64,000 nucleotides of DNA from Escherichia phage FL23. Below the pieces are notes generated by a model. The model ran no database searches, was not told where the DNA came from, and worked only from the letters and a program-made list of their open reading frames with translations. The translations under genes and the position numbers were made by a program. Location of the stretch: the sequence record PP400787; one strand, written 5' to 3'. Positions 4,355-41,496 of this stretch are shown here, one piece after another. Each line of letters starts with the position of its first letter. Position 1 is the stretch's first letter.

Positions 4355-5070
4355 AAAAATATTTTACTATCTATAAAACTGAAATATTAAATTTAAAGAC
4401 AGGTATTAAGAAATACTATTATGGTCGACATATAACTAATAATACCAATGATTCGTATGTTGGTAGTGGAAATTATATAGAACGTGTAAAAGTGTCAAAT
4501 GACCACATATTATCAAAAACGGTTTTAGAAGTTTTTGATAATTATGATAAAATGGTACAAGCTGAAATATTATATATCATGGCAGGTAAATTGAAATATG
4601 GGAAAAACTGTGTTAACCTGTCATACGGGGGTGAAGGAGGAAAGGTTGCAGATGAAACTAGGATAAAATGCAAAAAGCATTCTATAAATTTATGGAAAAA
4701 TCCTAATCATATACAGCATATGAAGAAAAAGATGAAAGAGGTCACATCCACGCCGGAAGCTAAATTAAACACTTCAATAAAAACTTCGCAACGATATAAG
4801 GACCCGGTTTTTGTTAGAAAAGTTAGTAATATTATTAAAAAGAAACTAAGCAATCCTGCAGTAAAAGAAAAGCATATTAATGGAATTAAAGCTGCAAAGC
4901 GTTCTCATTTAACTATATGGCAGTATGAAGATGAATTATTCGAGCTCTGGAAAGAAACTAAATGTGGATGGAGAAAATTTACAAAGGAAGCTATAAAACA
5001 CGGATATCCAAATGAACCGTATCGTAGTATGGTATCAACTTTTCAGAAAAGACATTTAGAAGAATCCTAA
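4351..5070 (+). CDS. free-standing GIY-YIG homing endonuclease (Seg-like)
   Basis: N-terminal IYKTEILNLKTGIKKYYYGRH ... YVGSG module shared with the segF-like ORF at 40822; K/N-rich C-terminal DNA-binding repeats; ATGA overlap with upstream gene. Confidence 0.6.
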   Translation: MKKYFTIYKTEILNLKTGIKKYYYGRHITNNTNDSYVGSGNYIERVKVSNDHILSKTVLEVFDNYDKMVQAEILYIMAGKLKYGKNCVNLSYGGEGGKVADETRIKCKKHSINLWKNPNHIQHMKKKMKEVTSTPEAKLNTSIKTSQRYKDPVFVRKVSNIIKKKLSNPAVKEKHINGIKAAKRSHLTIWQYEDELFELWKETKCGWRKFTKEAIKHGYPNEPYRSMVSTFQKRHLEES

Positions 5071-5140
5071 GACAAAAAGGCAGTTCAGAAATAGATTATA
5101 TGGACTGCCATCAAAAAGATGACTAGAATTAAACTGGTAA

Positions 5141-5455
5141 ATGGAGGTAATGATGTTATACTCAAAGGCTCGTGAAATTTACGAAACTAAAATTAAAGAA
5201 GCAGTATTTAAGTTCGCAACGACAATGCGATGGACAAATGACTGGGAGTATTCAAAAAATCATAAGAAGCCCATGGTGACAAGAAAGGCTCATATGTTAG
5301 TGTTAATAGACCGTGAGCAGATTAAAGCCCGAGAAGCCCTCCAGAATCATAAAAAGGCTGCCTTTGAATGGTTTATGGATAACACTGCTCCTGAGACTAA
5401 GAAAGCAGTGAGTGCATGGTTCAGTGGAAAAAATTGTGAAAGAAGTTTCTTTTAG
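5141..5455 (+). CDS. hypothetical protein (104 aa)
   Basis: ORF track only. Confidence 0.4.
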   Translation: MEVMMLYSKAREIYETKIKEAVFKFATTMRWTNDWEYSKNHKKPMVTRKAHMLVLIDREQIKAREALQNHKKAAFEWFMDNTAPETKKAVSAWFSGKNCERSFF

Positions 5456-5457
5456 TG

Positions 5458-5515
5458 GTTTACAAGACTGTTCCTCTGTGGTACTATACAACTATCAACT
5501 ACGGAGGAACAGAAA
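5458..5515 (+). repeat. early promoter/leader cassette, variant class (identical to copy at 59148)
   Basis: GTTTACaagactgttcctctgtggTACTATacaactatcaactacGGAGGaacagaaa-ATG; arms ctgttcctc/gaggaacag are inverted repeats. Confidence 0.6.
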
Positions 5516-6043
5516 ATGAACGCTAAAGATATTTTCAACCTGGTAAATTACAACGATGGTAAATTTAAATCTGAAGCACAAAGCAAGTTCTTTAATGACA
5601 TCTCAATCGGAGGTGAAATCACGGTTGATGGAGGACAAATTTACAAATCCCGTTGGAATTGGATCGTTATTATCGATGAGATTGGTATTGTAGAAATTTA
5701 CAAGAATACGAATAAAAATCGTACATTACACTGGTCTCGTGATACTAACGAACAATACAAAAAGGATAAAGCATCTAAATTATCTCGTGTAACTCAAGAA
5801 GATATTGAGTTCATCAAGAAAGATATTTTGATGTATGATAACTTAATTGCTGAAGAGCAAGCTGTTATTGATAAATTTGATGAGATTAAAGCTTCTCGTG
5901 AAATTCCTGATTTTATGAAAGAATCAGTAAATGAACGATACACTCTCATTTCAGAGCGTATCGAAACTTACAAAAAGCAAAGAGCTGAACGCCAAAATAC
6001 TCTTCGGAAGTTTGAAGAACGGTTAAAGACGGTACTCGCATAA
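5516..6043 (+). CDS. hypothetical protein (175 aa)
   Basis: ORF track; ATG directly after cassette SD. Confidence 0.5.
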   Translation: MNAKDIFNLVNYNDGKFKSEAQSKFFNDISIGGEITVDGGQIYKSRWNWIVIIDEIGIVEIYKNTNKNRTLHWSRDTNEQYKKDKASKLSRVTQEDIEFIKKDILMYDNLIAEEQAVIDKFDEIKASREIPDFMKESVNERYTLISERIETYKKQRAERQNTLRKFEERLKTVLA

Positions 6044-6098
6044 CCGCTTTATACCAAGGATGGTATAATGGTTCTAAGCCCTTTTAATTGAGATTATT

Positions 6099-6332
6099 AT
6101 GAAACGGTTGATAATTAAAAGATTGAATTTATTGATATGTTGTTTATGTGTAGTAGTTGCATATGGTTATTACGCAATTAATGATTATATGCACTATAAA
6201 GATTATGATGTTACTGTAGTTAATACCCTTACAGGAACTCAAGGAAAGGGGTCTAGTTTATTGCTGTATATGAACTCAAAGACGGTTATAGATTTAGCGA
6301 ATATATTTCACCGGAGATGTATTCTTCAATAG
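6099..6332 (+). CDS. small hydrophobic protein (77 aa)
   Basis: ORF track; N-terminal hydrophobic segment LNLLICCLCVVVAYGYYAI. Confidence 0.4.
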   Translation: MKRLIIKRLNLLICCLCVVVAYGYYAINDYMHYKDYDVTVVNTLTGTQGKGSSLLLYMNSKTVIDLANIFHRRCILQ

Positions 6333-6506: not shown

Positions 6507-7394
6507 ATGTCAGTAGTAATTAATAATGTCAATGCAGTAATTAAATCTTTAGTTAATAAAAAATTGAATGAATGGACTGTACTTTGTCGTGGAGAGCCAG
6601 ATAAATTTTTTCATAGATTTAACCCAACTTTGGATTTGAATGTTATTGACAGAGATGTTCATGCCAAAATTTTAGATAAATTTAAAGTTGATATTGGATT
6701 TGGATTAGAAAAACATTTACAGCGAACAAACGGGTCTGGAATGAGTTTATCTAATCGCATTATGAAAGCCCTTAATAAAATTGGAGCGTTGTCTCGTATT
6801 AATGCGAGTGAAATTCTTCGTAATTATAATAAAGGATATGACCTTTATGGTCGACTAATGCCGAAGTTATCATTTGACCAAATGATTGCAGATTTGTGGG
6901 AAAATCAGCGACGATTATTAGCATTAGGCGCTCGATTGGCTAAAGGTCTAGATAAACAAATGATTTTTAAGACCAATAATACAGAAGACCTTAAATGCTT
7001 TAAATTTAGTATTCGCGGAGATGATTATTACATCAGAGCTCACTCTACAGATTATGTTAATATGGGGCATCATCTCTGTTTAGCTTTTGAAGTTTTAAAA
7101 GAAGCTGGAACATTAGAATATACGTCTGGTGCTAAATGCCCGATTGGTTCAAATTGTATTTTGATTTATCGCCCGGATGAATCCAGTTCAACTAAATTGC
7201 CTACGAAACCTGTACCAGTTCGTAGTAATGAAAAACATTCTGAACAAATTGATTATTTTAATAAACAGATTGAAGAGCTGAATATTTCTATTCAACAATA
7301 TGATGATGAAATTTTCAGACTATCTGGATTGAGTAGTAAAGCTAAATCTGAGCGTGAAAAGTTAATTAAAATTGTTGATTTACTTAAATCTTAA
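6507..7394 (+). CDS. hypothetical protein with C-terminal coiled coil, tandem paralog 1 of 4
   Basis: ATG after GAGG; central RRLLALGARLAKG-type motif and heptad-like C-terminal tail shared with next three genes. Confidence 0.5.
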   Translation: MSVVINNVNAVIKSLVNKKLNEWTVLCRGEPDKFFHRFNPTLDLNVIDRDVHAKILDKFKVDIGFGLEKHLQRTNGSGMSLSNRIMKALNKIGALSRINASEILRNYNKGYDLYGRLMPKLSFDQMIADLWENQRRLLALGARLAKGLDKQMIFKTNNTEDLKCFKFSIRGDDYYIRAHSTDYVNMGHHLCLAFEVLKEAGTLEYTSGAKCPIGSNCILIYRPDESSSTKLPTKPVPVRSNEKHSEQIDYFNKQIEELNISIQQYDDEIFRLSGLSSKAKSEREKLIKIVDLLKS

Positions 7395-14366: not shown

Positions 14367-15646
14367 ATGAAGTAAATACACTTTTCAGCTCTAATGGGCA
14401 GACTCCTTTTGTAACAATTACATTTGGTACAGGAACTGACTGGACTGAACGAATGATTCAGAAAGCAATTCTGAAAAATCGTATTAAAGGTCTTGGTCGT
14501 GATGGGATAACTCCTATTTTCCCTAAGCTTGTTATGTTTGTTGAAGAAGGTGTTAATCTTTATAAAGACGATCCGAACTATGATATTAAGCAGCTTGCTC
14601 TAGAGTGCGCAAGCAAAAGAATGTATCCTGATATTATTTCAGCTAAGAACAATAAAGCTATCACTGGTTCATCTGTTCCTGTTTCTCCAATGGGTTGCCG
14701 TAGTTTCTTGAGCGTATGGAAAGATTCGACTGGTAATGAAATTCTTGATGGACGTAATAATCTTGGTGTTGTAACACTGAATCTTCCTCGTATCGCATTA
14801 GATTCTTATATTGGAACACAGTTCAATGAACAGAAATTTGTTGAATTGTTCAATGAACGAATGGATTTATGTTTTGAAGCTTTGATGTGTAGAATTAGTT
14901 CCTTAAAAGGAGTTAAAGCTACTGTTGCTCCTATTCTTTACCAAGAAGGTGCATTTGGGGTTCGTCTTAAACCTGATGACGATATAATTGAGTTATTTAA
15001 AAACGGTAGAAGTTCAGTGTCTTTAGGATACATTGGTATTCACGAATTGAATATTCTTGTCGGTCGTGATATTGGACGAGAAATTTTAACTAAAATGAAT
15101 GCTCATCTTAAACAGTGGACTGAAAGAACCGGATTTGCTTTTAGTTTATATTCGACTCCTGCTGAAAACCTTTGTTATCGCTTCTGTAAACTCGATACAG
15201 AAAAATATGGAAGCGTAAAAGATGTTACCGATAAAGGCTGGTACACTAACAGTTTCCATGTCTCAGTAGAAGAAAATATTACTCCGTTTGAAAAGATTTC
15301 TCGTGAAGCGCCATATCATTTCATTGCGACAGGTGGTCACATTTCTTATGTTGAACTTCCTGATATGAAAAATAACTTGAAAGGTCTTGAGGCCGTATGG
15401 GATTATGCTGCACAACATTTAGATTATTTTGGTGTTAATATGCCAGTGGATAAATGTTTTACATGCGGAAGTACCCATGAAATGACTCCTACTGAAAACG
15501 GATTTGTTTGTTCTATTTGTGGAGAAACTGATCCTAAAAAGATGAATACAATAAGAAGAACATGTGGCTATCTTGGAACTCCTAGCGTTGTTCCATGGAA
15601 TTTAGGTAAAATGAAAGAAATGGTAAAACGAGTAAAACATGCATAG
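14367..15646 (+). CDS. nrdD: anaerobic ribonucleoside-triphosphate reductase, exon 2
   Basis: Continues NrdD frame (EVNTLFSSNGQTPFVTITFGTG ...); C-terminal CxxC ... CxxC zinc ribbon; exon1+exon2 = 605 aa. Confidence 0.75.
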
Positions 15647-16469
15647 ATATTATATAATTTATAAAATAACAAATATAATTAATTCAAAGGAATATATCGG
15701 TGCGCATAGCACCGATAACATAAATGACGGTTATATGGGGTCAGGAACATTGATTCGTGCCGCTTTATTAAAATATGGTAGAAAAAATTTTAATAAAGAA
15801 ATTTTACATGTTTTTGATAATGAAAAACAAATGTATGATAAAGAAGCTGAACTTGTAACCGAAGAGTATTGTCTAAAAGAAAATACATATAATATTAAAC
15901 CTGGTGGAAAAGGTGGAACTGCTTATGAACAGACACTTGAACATCGCCACAAAAATAGTTTGGCAAATAAAGGTAAAAAGAAAACAGAAAAAACTAAAAT
16001 AGCTATTTCACGCGCTTTAAAGAAATATAAACGTACGCCAGAGCATCAAGCAAATTTAAATAAAGCTGTAAGCATAGCTATGAAGCGAAAAGATGTTAGA
16101 AGTAAATTAGTTGGAGAGCGGTCTGAGAAAGATAAATTATCTATATCAAACGGTGTTAAAAAATATTACAATTCTTTGAGCGAAGAAGAACGCGTTCTTC
16201 TTCGCAAGCGAATTATTGAAGGTAAAAAGAATTCTCCCATGTCATTGGAATCTAGACAAAAGCTTTCAAAAGCTTTAAAAGGACTTCAAGTTGGTTCAAA
16301 AAATCCAATGTATGGAAAAATTTCTCCAACTAGCAAAACCGTTTCAGTTGACGGTATTAAATATGATTCAATTAAAAAGTGCTCAAATGCCATAAAAGTT
16401 TCTAGACATCTTATACTAAAACGCTGTAATTCTACTGATGAAGCTTGGAAAAATTGGATATTATTATGA
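15639..16469 (+). CDS. free-standing GIY-YIG homing endonuclease between nrdD and nrdG
   Basis: YYIIYKITNIINSKEYIGAH ... GYMGSG; repeated K-rich NUMOD-like C-terminal repeats; overlaps nrdD stop and nrdG start. Confidence 0.65.
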   Translation: MHRYYIIYKITNIINSKEYIGAHSTDNINDGYMGSGTLIRAALLKYGRKNFNKEILHVFDNEKQMYDKEAELVTEEYCLKENTYNIKPGGKGGTAYEQTLEHRHKNSLANKGKKKTEKTKIAISRALKKYKRTPEHQANLNKAVSIAMKRKDVRSKLVGERSEKDKLSISNGVKKYYNSLSEEERVLLRKRIIEGKKNSPMSLESRQKLSKALKGLQVGSKNPMYGKISPTSKTVSVDGIKYDSIKKCSNAIKVSRHLILKRCNSTDEAWKNWILL

Positions 16470-20930: not shown

Positions 20931-22133
20931 ATGAAAGTATGTATTTTTATGGCTCGAGGTCTTGAAGGTTGTGGTGTAACTAAATTTTCTCTTGAGCAAC
21001 GTGATTGGTTTATTAAAAATGGTCATGAAGTAACTTTGGTTTATGCTAAAGATAAATCATTTACTCGTAATTGCGCGCATGATTATAAATCATTTTCAAT
21101 TCCGGTTTTATTGGCAAAAGAATACGATAAAACACTTAAGCTGGTAAATGATTGTGATATTCTAATTATCAATTCAGTTCCTGCTACTTCGGTTGAAGAA
21201 GACACTATTAATAACTATAAAAAAATTATTGATAACATTAAACCTTCTGTTCGTGTTGTAGTTTATCAGCATGACCATTCTTCTCTTTCTTTGCGTCGAA
21301 ATTTGGGATTAGAAGAAACTGTTCGTCGAGCTGATGTTATTTTTAGCCATTCTGATAATGGCGATTTTAATAAAGTTCTGATGAAAGAATGGTATCCAGA
21401 AACTGTTTCTCTGTTTGATGATATTGAAGAAGCACCGACAGTATATAACTTTCAGCCTCCTATGGATATTGCGAAGGTTCGGTCAACTTACTGGAAAGAT
21501 GTTTCTGAAATTAACATGAATATCAACCGTTGGATTGGTCGTACGACTACATGGAAAGGTTTTTATCAGATGTTTGATTTTCACGAAAAACATCTTAAAC
21601 CTGCAGGACTAAGTACTATTATGGAAGGTCTGGAACGTTCTCCAGCGTTCATTCCTATTAAAGAAAAAGGAATTCCATACGAGTATTATCGTCTTCATCA
21701 AGTAGACCAAATTAAAATTGCTCCTAATTTGCCAACGCAAATTCTTGACCGTTATGTAAATAGCGAAATGCTTGAACGCATGAGTAAATCCGGATTTGGT
21801 TATCAGTTGAGTAAGTTGGATAAAAAATATCTGCAACGTTCTTTAGAATATACTCATCTCGAGCTTGGTGCTTGCGGTACAATTCCTGTTTTCTGGAAAT
21901 CTACTGGCGAAAATTTAAAATTCCGTGTTGATAATACTCCTTTGACCTCGCATGATAGCGGTATCATTTGGTTTGATGAAAATGATATGGAATCAACGTT
22001 TGAACGTATTAAAGAACTGTCATCTGACCGAACTCTTTATGACCGTGAGCGAGAAAAAGCATATGAATTTTTGTATCAGCATCAAGATTCAAGCTTCTGC
22101 TTTAAAGAACAGTTTGACATTATTACAAAATAA
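20931..22133 (+). CDS. agt: DNA alpha-glucosyltransferase
   Basis: 400 aa; MKVCIFMARGLEGCGVTKFSLEQRDWFIKNGHEVTLVYAK closely matches recalled T4 AGT. Confidence 0.85.
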   Translation: MKVCIFMARGLEGCGVTKFSLEQRDWFIKNGHEVTLVYAKDKSFTRNCAHDYKSFSIPVLLAKEYDKTLKLVNDCDILIINSVPATSVEEDTINNYKKIIDNIKPSVRVVVYQHDHSSLSLRRNLGLEETVRRADVIFSHSDNGDFNKVLMKEWYPETVSLFDDIEEAPTVYNFQPPMDIAKVRSTYWKDVSEINMNINRWIGRTTTWKGFYQMFDFHEKHLKPAGLSTIMEGLERSPAFIPIKEKGIPYEYYRLHQVDQIKIAPNLPTQILDRYVNSEMLERMSKSGFGYQLSKLDKKYLQRSLEYTHLELGACGTIPVFWKSTGENLKFRVDNTPLTSHDSGIIWFDENDMESTFERIKELSSDRTLYDREREKAYEFLYQHQDSSFCFKEQFDIITK

Positions 22134-32353: not shown

Positions 32354-32605
32354 ATGGAAACTTTAGTAGCAGGTTCAATTTTTATGGTTTTAGTTTCAGG
32401 CGTGTTGGCTATTATTATATACATGCTTCCATGGTTCATCGCCTTGATGCGTGGGTCAAAATCGACAGTAGGAATCTTTTTCACGTCTTTACTGTTTAAC
32501 TGGTCAATTATTGGTTGGTTTATTACATTTATTTGGTCAATTGCGGGTGAAACTAAAAAGTCTGCACAGCCAAATCAAGTAATTATCATCAGAGAGAAGG
32601 AATGA
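32354..32605 (+). CDS. imm: immunity to superinfection membrane protein Imm
   Basis: 83 aa, two TM helices; position and length as T4 Imm. Confidence 0.75.
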   Translation: METLVAGSIFMVLVSGVLAIIIYMLPWFIALMRGSKSTVGIFFTSLLFNWSIIGWFITFIWSIAGETKKSAQPNQVIIIREKE

Positions 32606-32758
32606 AAAGCAAAATTATAGCAGTGTTGCTTTTAATCTTGATGATTATAATAAGTATATACTATAGTGTAACGGTTCCTCTTATGATTCCAACTATTATT
32701 TTAGGTTGGGGTTTATTACTGTTACAAGTTAAATATGAATGTATCAATTGAGGTTTAA

Positions 32759-33499
32759 ATGATTAGTGACTCTATGACAGTTGAAGAAATCCGTCTTCAT
32801 TTGGGGCTTGCATTAAAGGAAAAAGATTTCGTAGTTGATAAAACTGGTGTTAAAACTATTGAAATTATTGGCGCATCATTTGTAGCAGATGAACCGTTTA
32901 TTTTTGGCGCTCTTAATGATGAATACATTCAGCGTGAACTTGAATGGTATAAATCTAAGAGCTTGTTTGTTAAAGATATTCCAGGTGAAACACCAAAGAT
33001 TTGGCAGCAGGTAGCATCTTCTAAAGGCGAAATTAACTCGAATTATGGTTGGGCTATCTGGTCAGAAGATAACTATGCTCAGTATGATATGTGTTTAGCT
33101 GAACTTGGTCAAAATCCTGATTCTCGACGTGGTATCATGATTTATACTCGTCCATCCATGCAATTTGACTACAATAAAGATGGTATGTCAGATTTCATGT
33201 GTACGAATACAGTACAGTACCTGATTCGTGATAAGAAAGTCAATGCAGTAGTAAGCATGCGCTCAAATGACGTGGTCTTCGGATTCCGTAATGATTATGC
33301 ATGGCAAAAATACGTATTAGATAAATTAGTATCTGATTTGAATGCAGGCGATTCAACTCGTCAGTATAAAGCAGGTTCTATTATATGGAATGTTGGAAGT
33401 CTTCATGTATATTCTCGTCATTTTTACTTGGTTGATCATTGGTGGAATACTGGCGAAACTCATATTGTGAAAAAAGATTATAACGGTGAGTGGAAATGA
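32759..33499 (+). CDS. 42: dCMP hydroxymethylase gp42
   Basis: 246 aa; thymidylate-synthase-like fold region; T4 gp42 length and position. Confidence 0.85.
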   Translation: MISDSMTVEEIRLHLGLALKEKDFVVDKTGVKTIEIIGASFVADEPFIFGALNDEYIQRELEWYKSKSLFVKDIPGETPKIWQQVASSKGEINSNYGWAIWSEDNYAQYDMCLAELGQNPDSRRGIMIYTRPSMQFDYNKDGMSDFMCTNTVQYLIRDKKVNAVVSMRSNDVVFGFRNDYAWQKYVLDKLVSDLNAGDSTRQYKAGSIIWNVGSLHVYSRHFYLVDHWWNTGETHIVKKDYNGEWK

Positions 33500-34338
33500 T
33501 TCAATTCGTAATTCCAAGTTATCAACGTGTAGGGGCAGTTTCTGCCCTTGATATGTTTCCGACTGATTATGAACCACATATTGTAGTACGTGAACACGAA
33601 GAAGAAGCTTATTATGATGCTTATGGGTCTAGAGCTAAAATTGTAACTATTCCTGATGATGTTAATGGAATTGCCGGTACTCGTAAAGCAATTACTGATA
33701 TGTATGCAGGTCAACGAATCTGGATGATTGACGATGATACTACTATTCGTATGAGTTCAATACGAAAGAGAGACGATAAACGGCGCGTAGATAAAATTAA
33801 TCAATTAACTCGTGAACAGTTCTATGAATTAATTCAATACGTTGAGGATGCTATGGATTGCGGGTATTATCACGGTCATGCTCGTCTACCAATTTTTAAA
33901 ATTACTTCATCTTGGGGTAATTATCGTGAAAACTCATATGGATTCACGAATACATGGTATGACCTCGGAAAACTTACGACAGAACAAATTGGGTATGGAA
34001 AAATTGATTTATGTGAAGATATGTATGCATTTCTCAATTTAATTAATCAAGGTTATCCGCATTTGGCCTTGTTCAAATATCTAGTTGTATCTGGAAAATC
34101 ACACGCTCCCGGTGGGTGTAGTTCAATTCGTAGTAATTCTAAACATAATAGAGCTCTTGAGCAAATCAATAGAGAGTTTCCAGAGCAAGCTCGTTGGAAA
34201 ACATCGAATATTGAAAAACGAAAATCGTTGGGTGAAGAAGACGAGCCATTAAAGGTTCTTCGCATGTGTGTTTCGCGTAAAGAAAAATCAGAAGCATTTC
34301 ATAAGTTTAATGCTATTCATCCAATAGCAGTTGATTAA
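33496..34338 (+). CDS. GT-A-fold glycosyltransferase in the T4 beta-gt slot (candidate glucosyl-HMC glucosyltransferase of T2/T6 type)
   Basis: N-terminal VIPSYQR and MIDDD (DxD) motifs; not similar to T4 beta-glucosyltransferase; located between 42 and uvsX. Confidence 0.55.
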   Translation: MIQFVIPSYQRVGAVSALDMFPTDYEPHIVVREHEEEAYYDAYGSRAKIVTIPDDVNGIAGTRKAITDMYAGQRIWMIDDDTTIRMSSIRKRDDKRRVDKINQLTREQFYELIQYVEDAMDCGYYHGHARLPIFKITSSWGNYRENSYGFTNTWYDLGKLTTEQIGYGKIDLCEDMYAFLNLINQGYPHLALFKYLVVSGKSHAPGGCSSIRSNSKHNRALEQINREFPEQARWKTSNIEKRKSLGEEDEPLKVLRMCVSRKEKSEAFHKFNAIHPIAVD

Positions 34339-34415
34339 TGCCTAAATTTATTGTGTTATAATTACTTTATCTTTAACCAGTGAGGAAAATATAATGATGC
34401 CTATGGAAAAAATGA

Positions 34416-35597
34416 ATGTCTATTGCAGATTTAAAATCCCGTTTGATTAAAGCTTCCACTTCTAAAATGACTGCTGAACTGACTACATCTAAATTCTTTA
34501 ATGAAAAGGATGTAATCCGTACAAAAATCCCAATGCTTAATATCGCTATTTCCGGCGCGATTGATGGTGGTATGCAGTCTGGTTTAACCATTTTTGCAGG
34601 TCCTTCTAAACACTTTAAATCAAATATGTCTTTGACTATGGTTGCGGCGTATTTGAACAAATATCCTGACGCGGTTTGTCTATTTTATGATAGTGAATTT
34701 GGTATTACTCCAGCTTATTTGCGATCCATGGGAGTTGACCCTGAACGAGTAATTCATACGCCAATTCAGTCAGTTGAACAACTGAAAATTGATATGGTGA
34801 ATCAGCTTGAAGCTATTGAGCGCGGTGAAAAGGTTATTGTATTCATCGACTCAATCGGTAATATGGCTTCTAAGAAAGAAACGGAAGATGCCTTGAATGA
34901 AAAATCTGTGGCAGATATGACTCGTGCTAAATCACTGAAGTCATTATTCCGTATTGTTACTCCTTATTTTAGTATTAAAAACATTCCATGCGTTGCGGTT
35001 AACCATACAATTGAAACAATTGAAATGTTTAGTAAAACCGTGATGACAGGCGGTACAGGCGTAATGTATTCGGCTGATACTGTATTCATTATCGGTAAAC
35101 GTCAGATTAAAGATGGTTCTGATCTTCAGGGGTATCAATTTGTTCTAAATGTAGAAAAATCTCGTACCGTTAAAGAAAAAAGTAAATTCTTTATTGATGT
35201 TAAATTTGACGGTGGTATCGATCCTTATTCTGGATTGTTAGATATGGCTCTTGAATTAGGATTTGTAGTAAAACCTAAAAATGGTTGGTATGCTCGTGAA
35301 TTTCTTGACGAAGAAACTGGCGAGATGATTCGCGAAGAAAAATCTTGGCGTGCAAAAGATACCAATTGCACTACATTCTGGGGTCCTTTATTTAAGCATC
35401 AGCCATTCCGAGATGCTATTAAACGCGCTTATCAGTTAGGTGCTATTGATAGTAATGAAATTGTTGAAGCTGAAGTCGACGAATTGATTAACTCAAAGGT
35501 TGAAAAATTTAAATCTCCAGAAAGTAAAAGTAAATCAGCTGCTGATTTAGAAACTGACCTAGATCAGTTAAGTGATATGGAAGAATTTAATGAATAA
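34416..35597 (+). CDS. uvsX: RecA-like recombinase UvsX
   Basis: 393 aa; Walker A GPSKHFKS; matches recalled T4 UvsX. Confidence 0.9.
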   Translation: MSIADLKSRLIKASTSKMTAELTTSKFFNEKDVIRTKIPMLNIAISGAIDGGMQSGLTIFAGPSKHFKSNMSLTMVAAYLNKYPDAVCLFYDSEFGITPAYLRSMGVDPERVIHTPIQSVEQLKIDMVNQLEAIERGEKVIVFIDSIGNMASKKETEDALNEKSVADMTRAKSLKSLFRIVTPYFSIKNIPCVAVNHTIETIEMFSKTVMTGGTGVMYSADTVFIIGKRQIKDGSDLQGYQFVLNVEKSRTVKEKSKFFIDVKFDGGIDPYSGLLDMALELGFVVKPKNGWYAREFLDEETGEMIREEKSWRAKDTNCTTFWGPLFKHQPFRDAIKRAYQLGAIDSNEIVEAEVDELINSKVEKFKSPESKSKSAADLETDLDQLSDMEEFNE

Positions 35598-40316: not shown

Positions 40317-40832
40317 ATGGCTTACTTTAATGAATGTTCACAACTGATTGAAGGCGCTGATAAAGCTCAAAATGAATACTGGGATATTCTCGGTGATGAA
40401 AAAGACCCGCTGCAGGTTATGCTTGATATGCAGAAATCTTTACAGGTTCGTTTAGCAAATGACCGCGAATACTGTTATCATCCAGATAAATTAGAAACTG
40501 CCGGTGATGTTGTTTCTTGGATGCGTGAACAAAAAGACTGTATTGATGATGAATTCCGCGAACTTCTGACTTCTCTTGGTGAAATGTCACGTGGTGAAAA
40601 AGATGCATCGGCAGTTTGGAAAAAATGGAAAGCACGTTATATTGAAGCGCAAGAAAAACGCATTGATGAAATGTCCCCAGAAGATCAGCTCGAAATTAAA
40701 TTTGAGCTTGTGGATATATTTCATTTCGTATTAAATATGTTTGCTGGCCTTGGAATGAATGCGGAAGAAATCTTTAAACTTTATTATTTGAAAAATAAAC
40801 ATAATTTTGAACGTCAAGATAATGGGTATTAA
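40317..40832 (+). CDS. 56: dCTP pyrophosphatase gp56
   Basis: 171 aa from MAYFNECSQLIEGADKAQNEYWDILGDEKDPLQVMLD; matches recalled T4 gp56. Confidence 0.9.
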   Translation: MAYFNECSQLIEGADKAQNEYWDILGDEKDPLQVMLDMQKSLQVRLANDREYCYHPDKLETAGDVVSWMREQKDCIDDEFRELLTSLGEMSRGEKDASAVWKKWKARYIEAQEKRIDEMSPEDQLEIKFELVDIFHFVLNMFAGLGMNAEEIFKLYYLKNKHNFERQDNGY

Positions 40833-41496
40833 ACAAAAATTTTATAGAACATATATCGTAAAAGTTAGGACGCCGAAAGGCGTCTTTTGGTACGCTGGGA
40901 AACATGAATCATTTATTGTAAATCCATATGATGATAAATATCCGGGGTCAGGCAAAATACTATGGAACATATATCGTAAGTATGGTTTTAATTATAAAAT
41001 ACGTTGGTCAAAATGCCATGGTTCTAGAGAAAAATCATATGAAGTTGAACGCGAGCTAATATCTGCATTAAAACGTAAACACCCAGATACTTGCATTAAT
41101 ATTTCTCCTGGTGGTCAGGGTGGAGAAGGAAGAAAATGGACTGAGCAACAACGATTAGAACATAAACTTAGATTAAACAATCCTGAAACAAAAACTCGGA
41201 TGAAGAATTCACAACGTATAGCCCAAAATAGAGCAGAACGAAAAGCTCGGCAATCTGAAGTAATGAAAAAGTTTTATTCGAATGGCGGAAATAAAAAGAT
41301 TTCAGAAGGAACTTCAAGGGCGCAAAGAAAAGCGCCGCATTGGAATGAACCGCTTAAAAGCGAAATACATGAGTTATGGGTTTCTTTAGGTAAACCAGCA
41401 ACAGGCCCGGTTGTAAAGGCGCTTAAAGGAAAATATGATGTAACAAGTTCAGCTCTTAAGAATTTAATTTACTTATTCAGAAAAGAAGATGTATAA
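40822..41496 (+). CDS. segF: GIY-YIG homing endonuclease, SegF-like
   Basis: 224 aa from internal ATG; YRTYIVKVRTPKGVFWYAGKH ... YPGSG; immediately downstream of gene 56 as T4 segF. Confidence 0.65.
   Translation: MGIKQKFYRTYIVKVRTPKGVFWYAGKHESFIVNPYDDKYPGSGKILWNIYRKYGFNYKIRWSKCHGSREKSYEVERELISALKRKHPDTCINISPGGQGGEGRKWTEQQRLEHKLRLNNPETKTRMKNSQRIAQNRAERKARQSEVMKKFYSNGGNKKISEGTSRAQRKAPHWNEPLKSEIHELWVSLGKPATGPVVKALKGKYDVTSSALKNLIYLFRKEDV

Follow-up and report, generated by a model that had tools for sequence, protein, structure and literature searches.

In T-even phages, the modification of cytosine runs from gp56 and gp42 through alpha-gt to ba-gt (PMC13216743; PMC11078745; bioRxiv 10.64898/2026.02.25.707755). 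The last of these, also referred to as ggt, g-gt, or TAGT, is a beta-glucosyl-HMC-alpha-glucosyltransferase whose gene, fold, product, distribution, and role in defense have already been published (PMC13216743; PMC11078745). By HPLC/MS, the DNA of phages EL, Geo, and BGP contains 5-hydroxymethylcytosine (5hmC or hmC) and its alpha-glucosyl and alpha-gentiobiosyl derivatives at approximately 1:2:2 and no beta-glucosyl derivative, and in NR1 and six other Tequatroviruses approximately one third is 5hmdC and approximately two thirds is gentiobiosylated (PMC13390438). Deletion of ba-gt in T6 was reported to leave only alpha-glucosyl-hmC (approximately 75% of cytosines, on the presumption of the authors) and to make the phage more sensitive to the alpha-glucosyl-hmC glycosylase Brig1 (PMC11078745). 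T4 has a beta-gt at the equivalent genome position. Like ba-gt, T4 beta-gt takes glucose from UDP-glucose, attaches it in beta linkage, and has hmC-containing phage DNA as its substrate; however, it has a GT-B fold (PMC13216743) and no sequence similarity to ba-gt, and it acts on bare hmC, whereas ba-gt acts on alpha-glucosyl-hmC. Modeling has assigned the TAGT family to the GT-A fold, as a sister of GT2 (PMC13216743). Other TAGTs are found alongside TET/JBP dioxygenases or on their own, and their substrate is probably 5hmC itself, in contrast to ba-gt, which acts after alpha-gt.

We compared these systems with the corresponding locus in a stretch of 64,000 nt from Escherichia phage FL23 (sequence record PP400787), hereafter referred to as the window; all genes, motifs, and RNA structures located below are on its plus strand. 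The initial annotation had placed a 280-aa protein between gene 42 and uvsX, and this is what we find: an intact ORF runs from an ATG at 33496 to a TAA at 34336–34338 (CDS 33496–34338) and is the sole long ORF of the region. Upstream lies gene 42 (32759–33499), which matches PF00303 (Thymidylat_synt), is 99% identical to gp42 of Yersinia phage PST, and encodes the dCMP hydroxymethylase that makes the hmC precursor; downstream lies uvsX (34416–35597), the product of which is 99.7% identical to PST UvsX. An alternative in-frame start, a GTG at 33490 that is 6 bases upstream and would give a protein of 282 aa, was rejected, as ATG is used in all annotated relatives examined. We prefer the ATG at 33496 because it is the start annotated in relatives and because it forms, as read from the sequence, an ATGA overlap with the TGA stop codon of gene 42 (33496–33499). 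In the annotations of PST, T2, EL, and NR1 the two genes overlap by the same 4 nt, and the overlap suggests translational coupling of ba-gt to gene 42.

The RNA across the gene 42/ba-gt junction (33485–33557) is predicted to be structured, with a minimum free energy of −27.4 kcal/mol (z = −3.5), and none of 200 shuffled sequences folded equally well. Its first stem holds both a Shine–Dalgarno-like GGUGAG and the AUG of ba-gt, and a second hairpin of 9 bp (33530–33550), which is terminator-like in the scan, lies over ba-gt codons 12–18. This structure fits a translation of ba-gt that depends on ribosomes terminating on gene 42. We claim no promoter for ba-gt itself, given that a scan for sigma-70-like consensus sequences gave 17 against 12.2 ± 3.5 in shuffled sequence. 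In base composition, ba-gt is no different from its surroundings. Downstream of ba-gt, a spacer of 77 nt separates it from uvsX; in this spacer are TGCCTAA (34339–34345) and, 11 nt later, TATAAT (34357–34362), a pair that on inspection by eye resembles the consensus of a T4 MotA-dependent middle promoter for uvsX.

To the PF20691 (TAGT) profile the protein aligns from position 2 to position 205 of 205 with 39.7 bits, compared with a curated cut-off of 27.5 bits, and it matches PHROG 842, "beta-glucosyl-HMC-alpha-glucosyltransferase," with an e value of 3.6e-88. Alignment with the T2/T6 enzyme, which had been proposed as a check in the initial annotation, gives 96% amino acid identity to the proteins that T2 (AP018813) and T6 encode at this position. 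The protein belongs to a family of DNA glycosyltransferases, PF20691/TAGT. The T2 and T6 proteins share with it the length of 280 aa, the position between gene 42 and uvsX, the alpha-gt partner and, in T2, the ATGA overlap. In nucleotide sequence the gene is 100% identical to its counterpart in Escherichia phage FL44 (PP400790.1), a Tequatrovirus from pig feces in Denmark; with 2.5 kb on each side included, the two phages have zero mismatches over 5,843 bases. The proteins from PST, EL, Geo, and BGP differ from that in the window solely by E37K (279 of 280 residues identical), and there is no difference of substance between the window protein and any of those from FL44, EL, Geo, BGP, and PST.

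Searches with the T4 enzyme bear out the statement in the initial annotation that the protein does not resemble T4 beta-gt. A BLASTP comparison of the two proteins gave nothing better than an e value of 4.1, and the window protein did not match the T4 beta-gt model PF09198 at e values up to 10, whereas T4 beta-gt itself matches this model with an e value of 9.4e-98. A beta-gt homolog was not found anywhere in the 64-kb window by TBLASTN with T4 beta-gt (best e value 2.4). The window's own alpha-gt has no similarity to ba-gt in BLASTP, and GT2 models from Pfam, for example PF00535 (Glycos_transf_2), do not match ba-gt at e values up to 10. What ties the protein to the TAGT/GT2 branch is the full-length match to PF20691, the modeled GT-A fold, and an invariant DxD motif; by sequence it is not a member of CAZy family GT2, and its kinship to GT2 is structural only, that of a sister group (PMC13216743). 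The gene product is very probably a T2/T6-type beta-glucosyl-HMC-alpha-glucosyltransferase that functions in the gentiobiosyl pathway, and we refer to the gene as ba-gt.

A search of PDB sequences with ba-gt revealed no solved relative, the best hit being an unrelated protein with an e value of 1.6. Homologs were gathered from 96% down to approximately 30% identity, ten of them were aligned, and the AlphaFold2 model made from this alignment has a mean pLDDT of 68.9 and a pTM of 0.71, with residues 1–80 modeled confidently and residues 126–151 and 195–211 modeled poorly (pLDDT less than 50). In this model the protein has a GT-A (nucleotide-diphospho-sugar transferase) fold, in agreement with the class assigned in the initial annotation, and not the two-Rossmann-domain fold of GT-B proteins. 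Alpha-gt and beta-gt, both GT-B enzymes, are unrelated to ba-gt. Residues I6, P7, S8, Y9, R11, D79, D80, D81, D93, D121, D175, and E250 are invariant across the aligned homologs, at identities as low as 31%; the copy in the window, which is full length, has kept all of them. Both motifs on which the initial annotation had relied are present and truly conserved across the family alignment. VIPSYQR (residues 5–11, 33508–33528), with five of the invariant residues, corresponds to the first beta-strand and the following loop of the nucleotide-binding domain (strand at residues 3–7 in the model, pLDDT 87), and DDD (residues 79–81, 33730–33738) comes right after a modeled strand at residues 74–77.

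In GT-A inverting enzymes, the DxD motif holds the metal and the diphosphate, and an acidic residue serves as the general base. By analogy with this enzymology, DDD 79–81 would bind a divalent metal and the diphosphate of UDP-glucose, and the mechanism of ba-gt would be an inverting one because a beta product arises from UDP-alpha-glucose. A candidate for the motif with the catalytic base is CED (residues 173–175, 34012–34020) at the start of a modeled helix (residues 174–184), in which D175 is invariant and E174 is nearly invariant in the family alignment; we take it to be a possible counterpart of the TED motif of GT2 enzymes, and D175 may tentatively be regarded as the general base. Active-site assignments other than the DxD motif are weak because the confidence of the model is moderate and falls below a pLDDT of 50 in the two regions named above.

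The genes expected to supply the acceptor are all in the window. The primary glucosyltransferase alpha-gt (400 aa; 20931–22133), which would make the acceptor alpha-glucosyl-hmC, lies where the initial annotation had placed it and matches PF11440 (AGT) with an e value of 4.3e-237; its nucleotide sequence is 100% identical to that of FL44 alpha-gt, and the next closest is that of CM8. Gene 56, which encodes the dCTPase that excludes unmodified cytosine, was located by TBLASTN with PST gp56 (78% identity over all 172 aa) at 40317–40832, the end coordinate presuming a stop codon immediately after the aligned stretch. With dCMP hydroxymethylase, dCTPase, and alpha-gt, the acceptor-supplying pathway is complete within the window. 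From alpha-gt to 41 the genes follow the standard Tequatrovirus order, as annotated in PST: alpha-gt, 47, 46, 45, 44, 62, regA, 43, imm.1, imm, a 49-aa ORF, 42, ba-gt, uvsX, 40, and 41. The ba-gt slot is syntenic with those of PST, T2, T6, EL, and NR1. The 49-aa ORF between imm and gene 42 (32602–32751) encodes a strongly hydrophobic product, and its start overlaps the stop of imm. The annotations of PST, EL, NR1, and FL44 call it hypothetical. T4 has it intact (47 of 49 residues identical; T4 locus 7228–7377, minus strand), and the RefSeq annotation table of T4 contains no CDS between imm and gene 42.

The name of the Pfam family, which refers to TET-associated glycosyltransferases, raises the question of whether ba-gt might glycosylate bare 5hmC directly, as those TAGTs may do, or use another sugar donor, and not extend alpha-glucosyl-hmC at all. 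The family is indeed not confined to the addition of a second sugar, for solitary TAGT homologs without alpha-GT or beta-GT are found in 288 of 753 phages (PMC13216743). We consider such an activity highly improbable for the window protein given its identity to the T6 enzyme, the deletion of which was reported to leave DNA with only alpha-glucosyl-hmC (PMC11078745), and given that in phages nearly identical to this one approximately 20–33% of hmC is bare and gentiobiose is the only disaccharide found (PMC13390438). A glucosyltransferase that acts after alpha-gt remains the preferred reading.

In comparison with T4, the locus differs by a cassette of 946 nt (33482–34427): BLASTN homology to T4 breaks off at 33481, with 18 nt of gene 42 still to come, and starts again at 34428, 12 nt inside uvsX. 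At the same place T4 has 1,941 nt that encode beta-gt and the GIY-YIG homing endonuclease segA, whereas the 946 nt of the window encode ba-gt. The initial annotation had taken this as a replacement of T4 beta-gt. That an unrelated gene occupies the slot is correct; the direction of the swap, however, is probably backwards. The phage collection contains 478 records with ba-gt, compared with 29 for T4-type beta-gt. Among these 29 records, 21 have "Escherichia" as the first word of the organism name and most are T4 itself (seven of the best 10 of the 29); RB55 and RB59 are also among the matches listed. In a census published in NAR in 2026, the pairing of alpha-GT with beta-GT was found in six of 753 phages and was called probably recent (PMC13216743). 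Because ba-gt is the majority state and only these six of 753 phages pair alpha-GT with beta-GT, T4 is the outlier, and the window represents the common and probably ancestral state with T4 as the exception.

TBLASTN with T4 SegA revealed a GIY-YIG homing-endonuclease-like stretch at 15645–15917 of the window (53% identity over 91 aa) and weaker matches at 4411–5046 and 40834–41124. All three SegA-like stretches are outside the ba-gt slot, the place of segA in T4. The match at 40834–41124 is directly 3′ of gene 56, the product of which is just 78% identical to its PST counterpart.

Comparison of ba-gt among Tequatroviruses reveals two groups of alleles, with seven positions setting them apart. 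One group, comprising the window, FL44, PST, EL, Geo, and BGP, has V50, I89, K95, R97, I101, S202, and H203, and T2, T6, and NR1 have I, M, R, C, V, A, and Q, respectively; no functional difference between the two groups has been demonstrated. Among the relatives compared, FL44 aside, E37 is private to the window, and position 37 is variable in the family alignment. Because it groups with EL, Geo, and BGP, the window allele belongs to the group that was measured at approximately 40% gentiobiosyl.

The ba-gt gene of T2 (AP018813, locus 5283–6125, minus strand) has two private substitutions, R11H at a family-invariant residue and P251S at a near-invariant one. In each of the two public genome records of T6, ba-gt has a lesion, and the two lesions are different. 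In MH550421 (locus 5924–5980, minus strand) there is a TAG at codon 10, and "ggt" is annotated from M20 as a protein of 261 aa without the conserved first strand; in AP018814 (locus 5135–5974, minus strand) an in-frame deletion of 3 nt has changed the invariant DDD to DD. T6 is the textbook phage with high gentiobiosylation, and its laboratory stocks may differ in modification.

The two T6 laboratory records indicate that ba-gt can evidently be lost in culture, and a copy in a phage genome might on this account be a decayed, non-functional remnant. For the copy in the window this probability is negligible, as the gene is full length with its invariant residues intact and is identical or nearly identical in many independent environmental isolates. 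A genuine ba-gt orthologue that is weak in vivo is a different matter. The share of gentiobiosyl-hmC among phages with enzymes that are 96–100% identical is approximately 5% in T2 (from literature as quoted in PMC11078745), 40% in EL, 67% in NR1, and 72% in T6. Because the share varies this widely among such similar enzymes, the gentiobiosyl ratio is not readable from sequence, and "T2/T6-like," the term of the initial annotation, spans very unequal amounts of the second sugar, with the closest measured relatives of the window in between. T2 has an intact gene that is 96% identical to that in the window and nonetheless has little gentiobiosyl-hmC in the source quoted, so the presence of the gene is no guarantee of high activity, and the window protein has its private E37. 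With an enzyme like that of T2, the DNA would in essence contain alpha-glucosyl-hmC and bare hmC, and the second sugar would be of little weight. We nevertheless regard this as very unlikely. R11H and P251S, which could account for the low level in T2 despite its intact gene, are both absent from the window protein, and E37K, at a variable position, is the sole difference from the enzymes of EL, Geo, and BGP, in which gentiobiosylation reaches approximately 40% (PMC13390438).

The distribution of alleles also allows a more speculative proposal, which we think is rather unlikely to hold: the PST/EL/FL44 group could be a kinetically distinct ba-gt that converts approximately half of alpha-glucosyl-hmC, with the allele, and not expression or the alpha-gt partner, setting the gentiobiosyl level across Tequatrovirus and with R11H and P251S explaining the level in T2. 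If this were true, a distinct allele would keep the genome deliberately in three states, with bare hmC, alpha-glucosyl-hmC, and gentiobiosyl-hmC side by side, as a hedge against state-specific defenses.

For the chemistry of FL23 DNA and for the response of the phage to host defenses, we draw on papers on near-identical or homologous phages. According to the established T-even route described there, gp56 and gp42 would supply hmdCTP so that phage DNA is built with 5-hydroxymethylcytosine. After replication, alpha-gt would place an alpha-linked glucose on most hmC, and ba-gt, which is probably co-transcribed and through the ATGA overlap translationally coupled with gene 42, would then transfer a second glucose from UDP-glucose to the 6-OH of the alpha-glucose with inversion, so that hmC would bear a beta-1,6-linked disaccharide (gentiobiosyl). 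The initial annotation had predicted a T2/T6-like modification of alpha-glucose plus a second glucose in place of the T4 pattern, and both the orthology to the T2/T6 enzyme and the composition of EL, Geo, and BGP DNA, with alpha-glucosyl and alpha-gentiobiosyl but no beta-glucosyl forms (PMC13390438), support it. For these sister phages, the LC-MS check suggested in the initial annotation is in effect already in print. By analogy with these phages, the DNA is predicted to contain hmC, alpha-glucosyl-hmC, and alpha-gentiobiosyl-hmC and no beta-glucosyl-hmC, in a ratio that is most likely close to 1:2:2. The CM8-like alpha-gt of the window would count against a forecast of approximately 1:2:2: the nearest relative listed for NR1 is CM8 (PMC13390438), and the LC-MS profile of NR1 is a different one.

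An effect of the second sugar on glucose-dependent restriction, which the initial annotation had anticipated, is supported by the literature and already known (PMC11078745; PMC13216743; PMC13390438). Gentiobiosyl DNA is resistant to Brig1 in vitro (PMC11078745), and the glucosidase BapA releases little or no glucose from gentiobiosyl-hmC (bioRxiv 10.64898/2026.02.25.707755). Type IV enzymes of the GmrSD/BrxU type still cleave gentiobiosyl DNA (PMC13216743; PMC13390438), and a phage without beta-gt that loses alpha-gt during escape from Brig1 has no stereochemical back-up to fall back on (PMC13216743). As a discovery the locus has little weight, because ba-gt is the usual occupant of the slot in sequenced relatives and the sequence is already in GenBank in the record of FL44. 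Its practical value is one of annotation, namely the prediction that the alpha-glucosyl and gentiobiosyl forms of hmC, but not the beta-glucosyl form, are present in FL23 DNA. This prediction bears on the handling of the DNA in vitro, both with restriction enzymes and in nanopore base-calling, and on the host range of the phage with respect to Brig1-like glycosylases and GmrSD/BrxU-type restriction.
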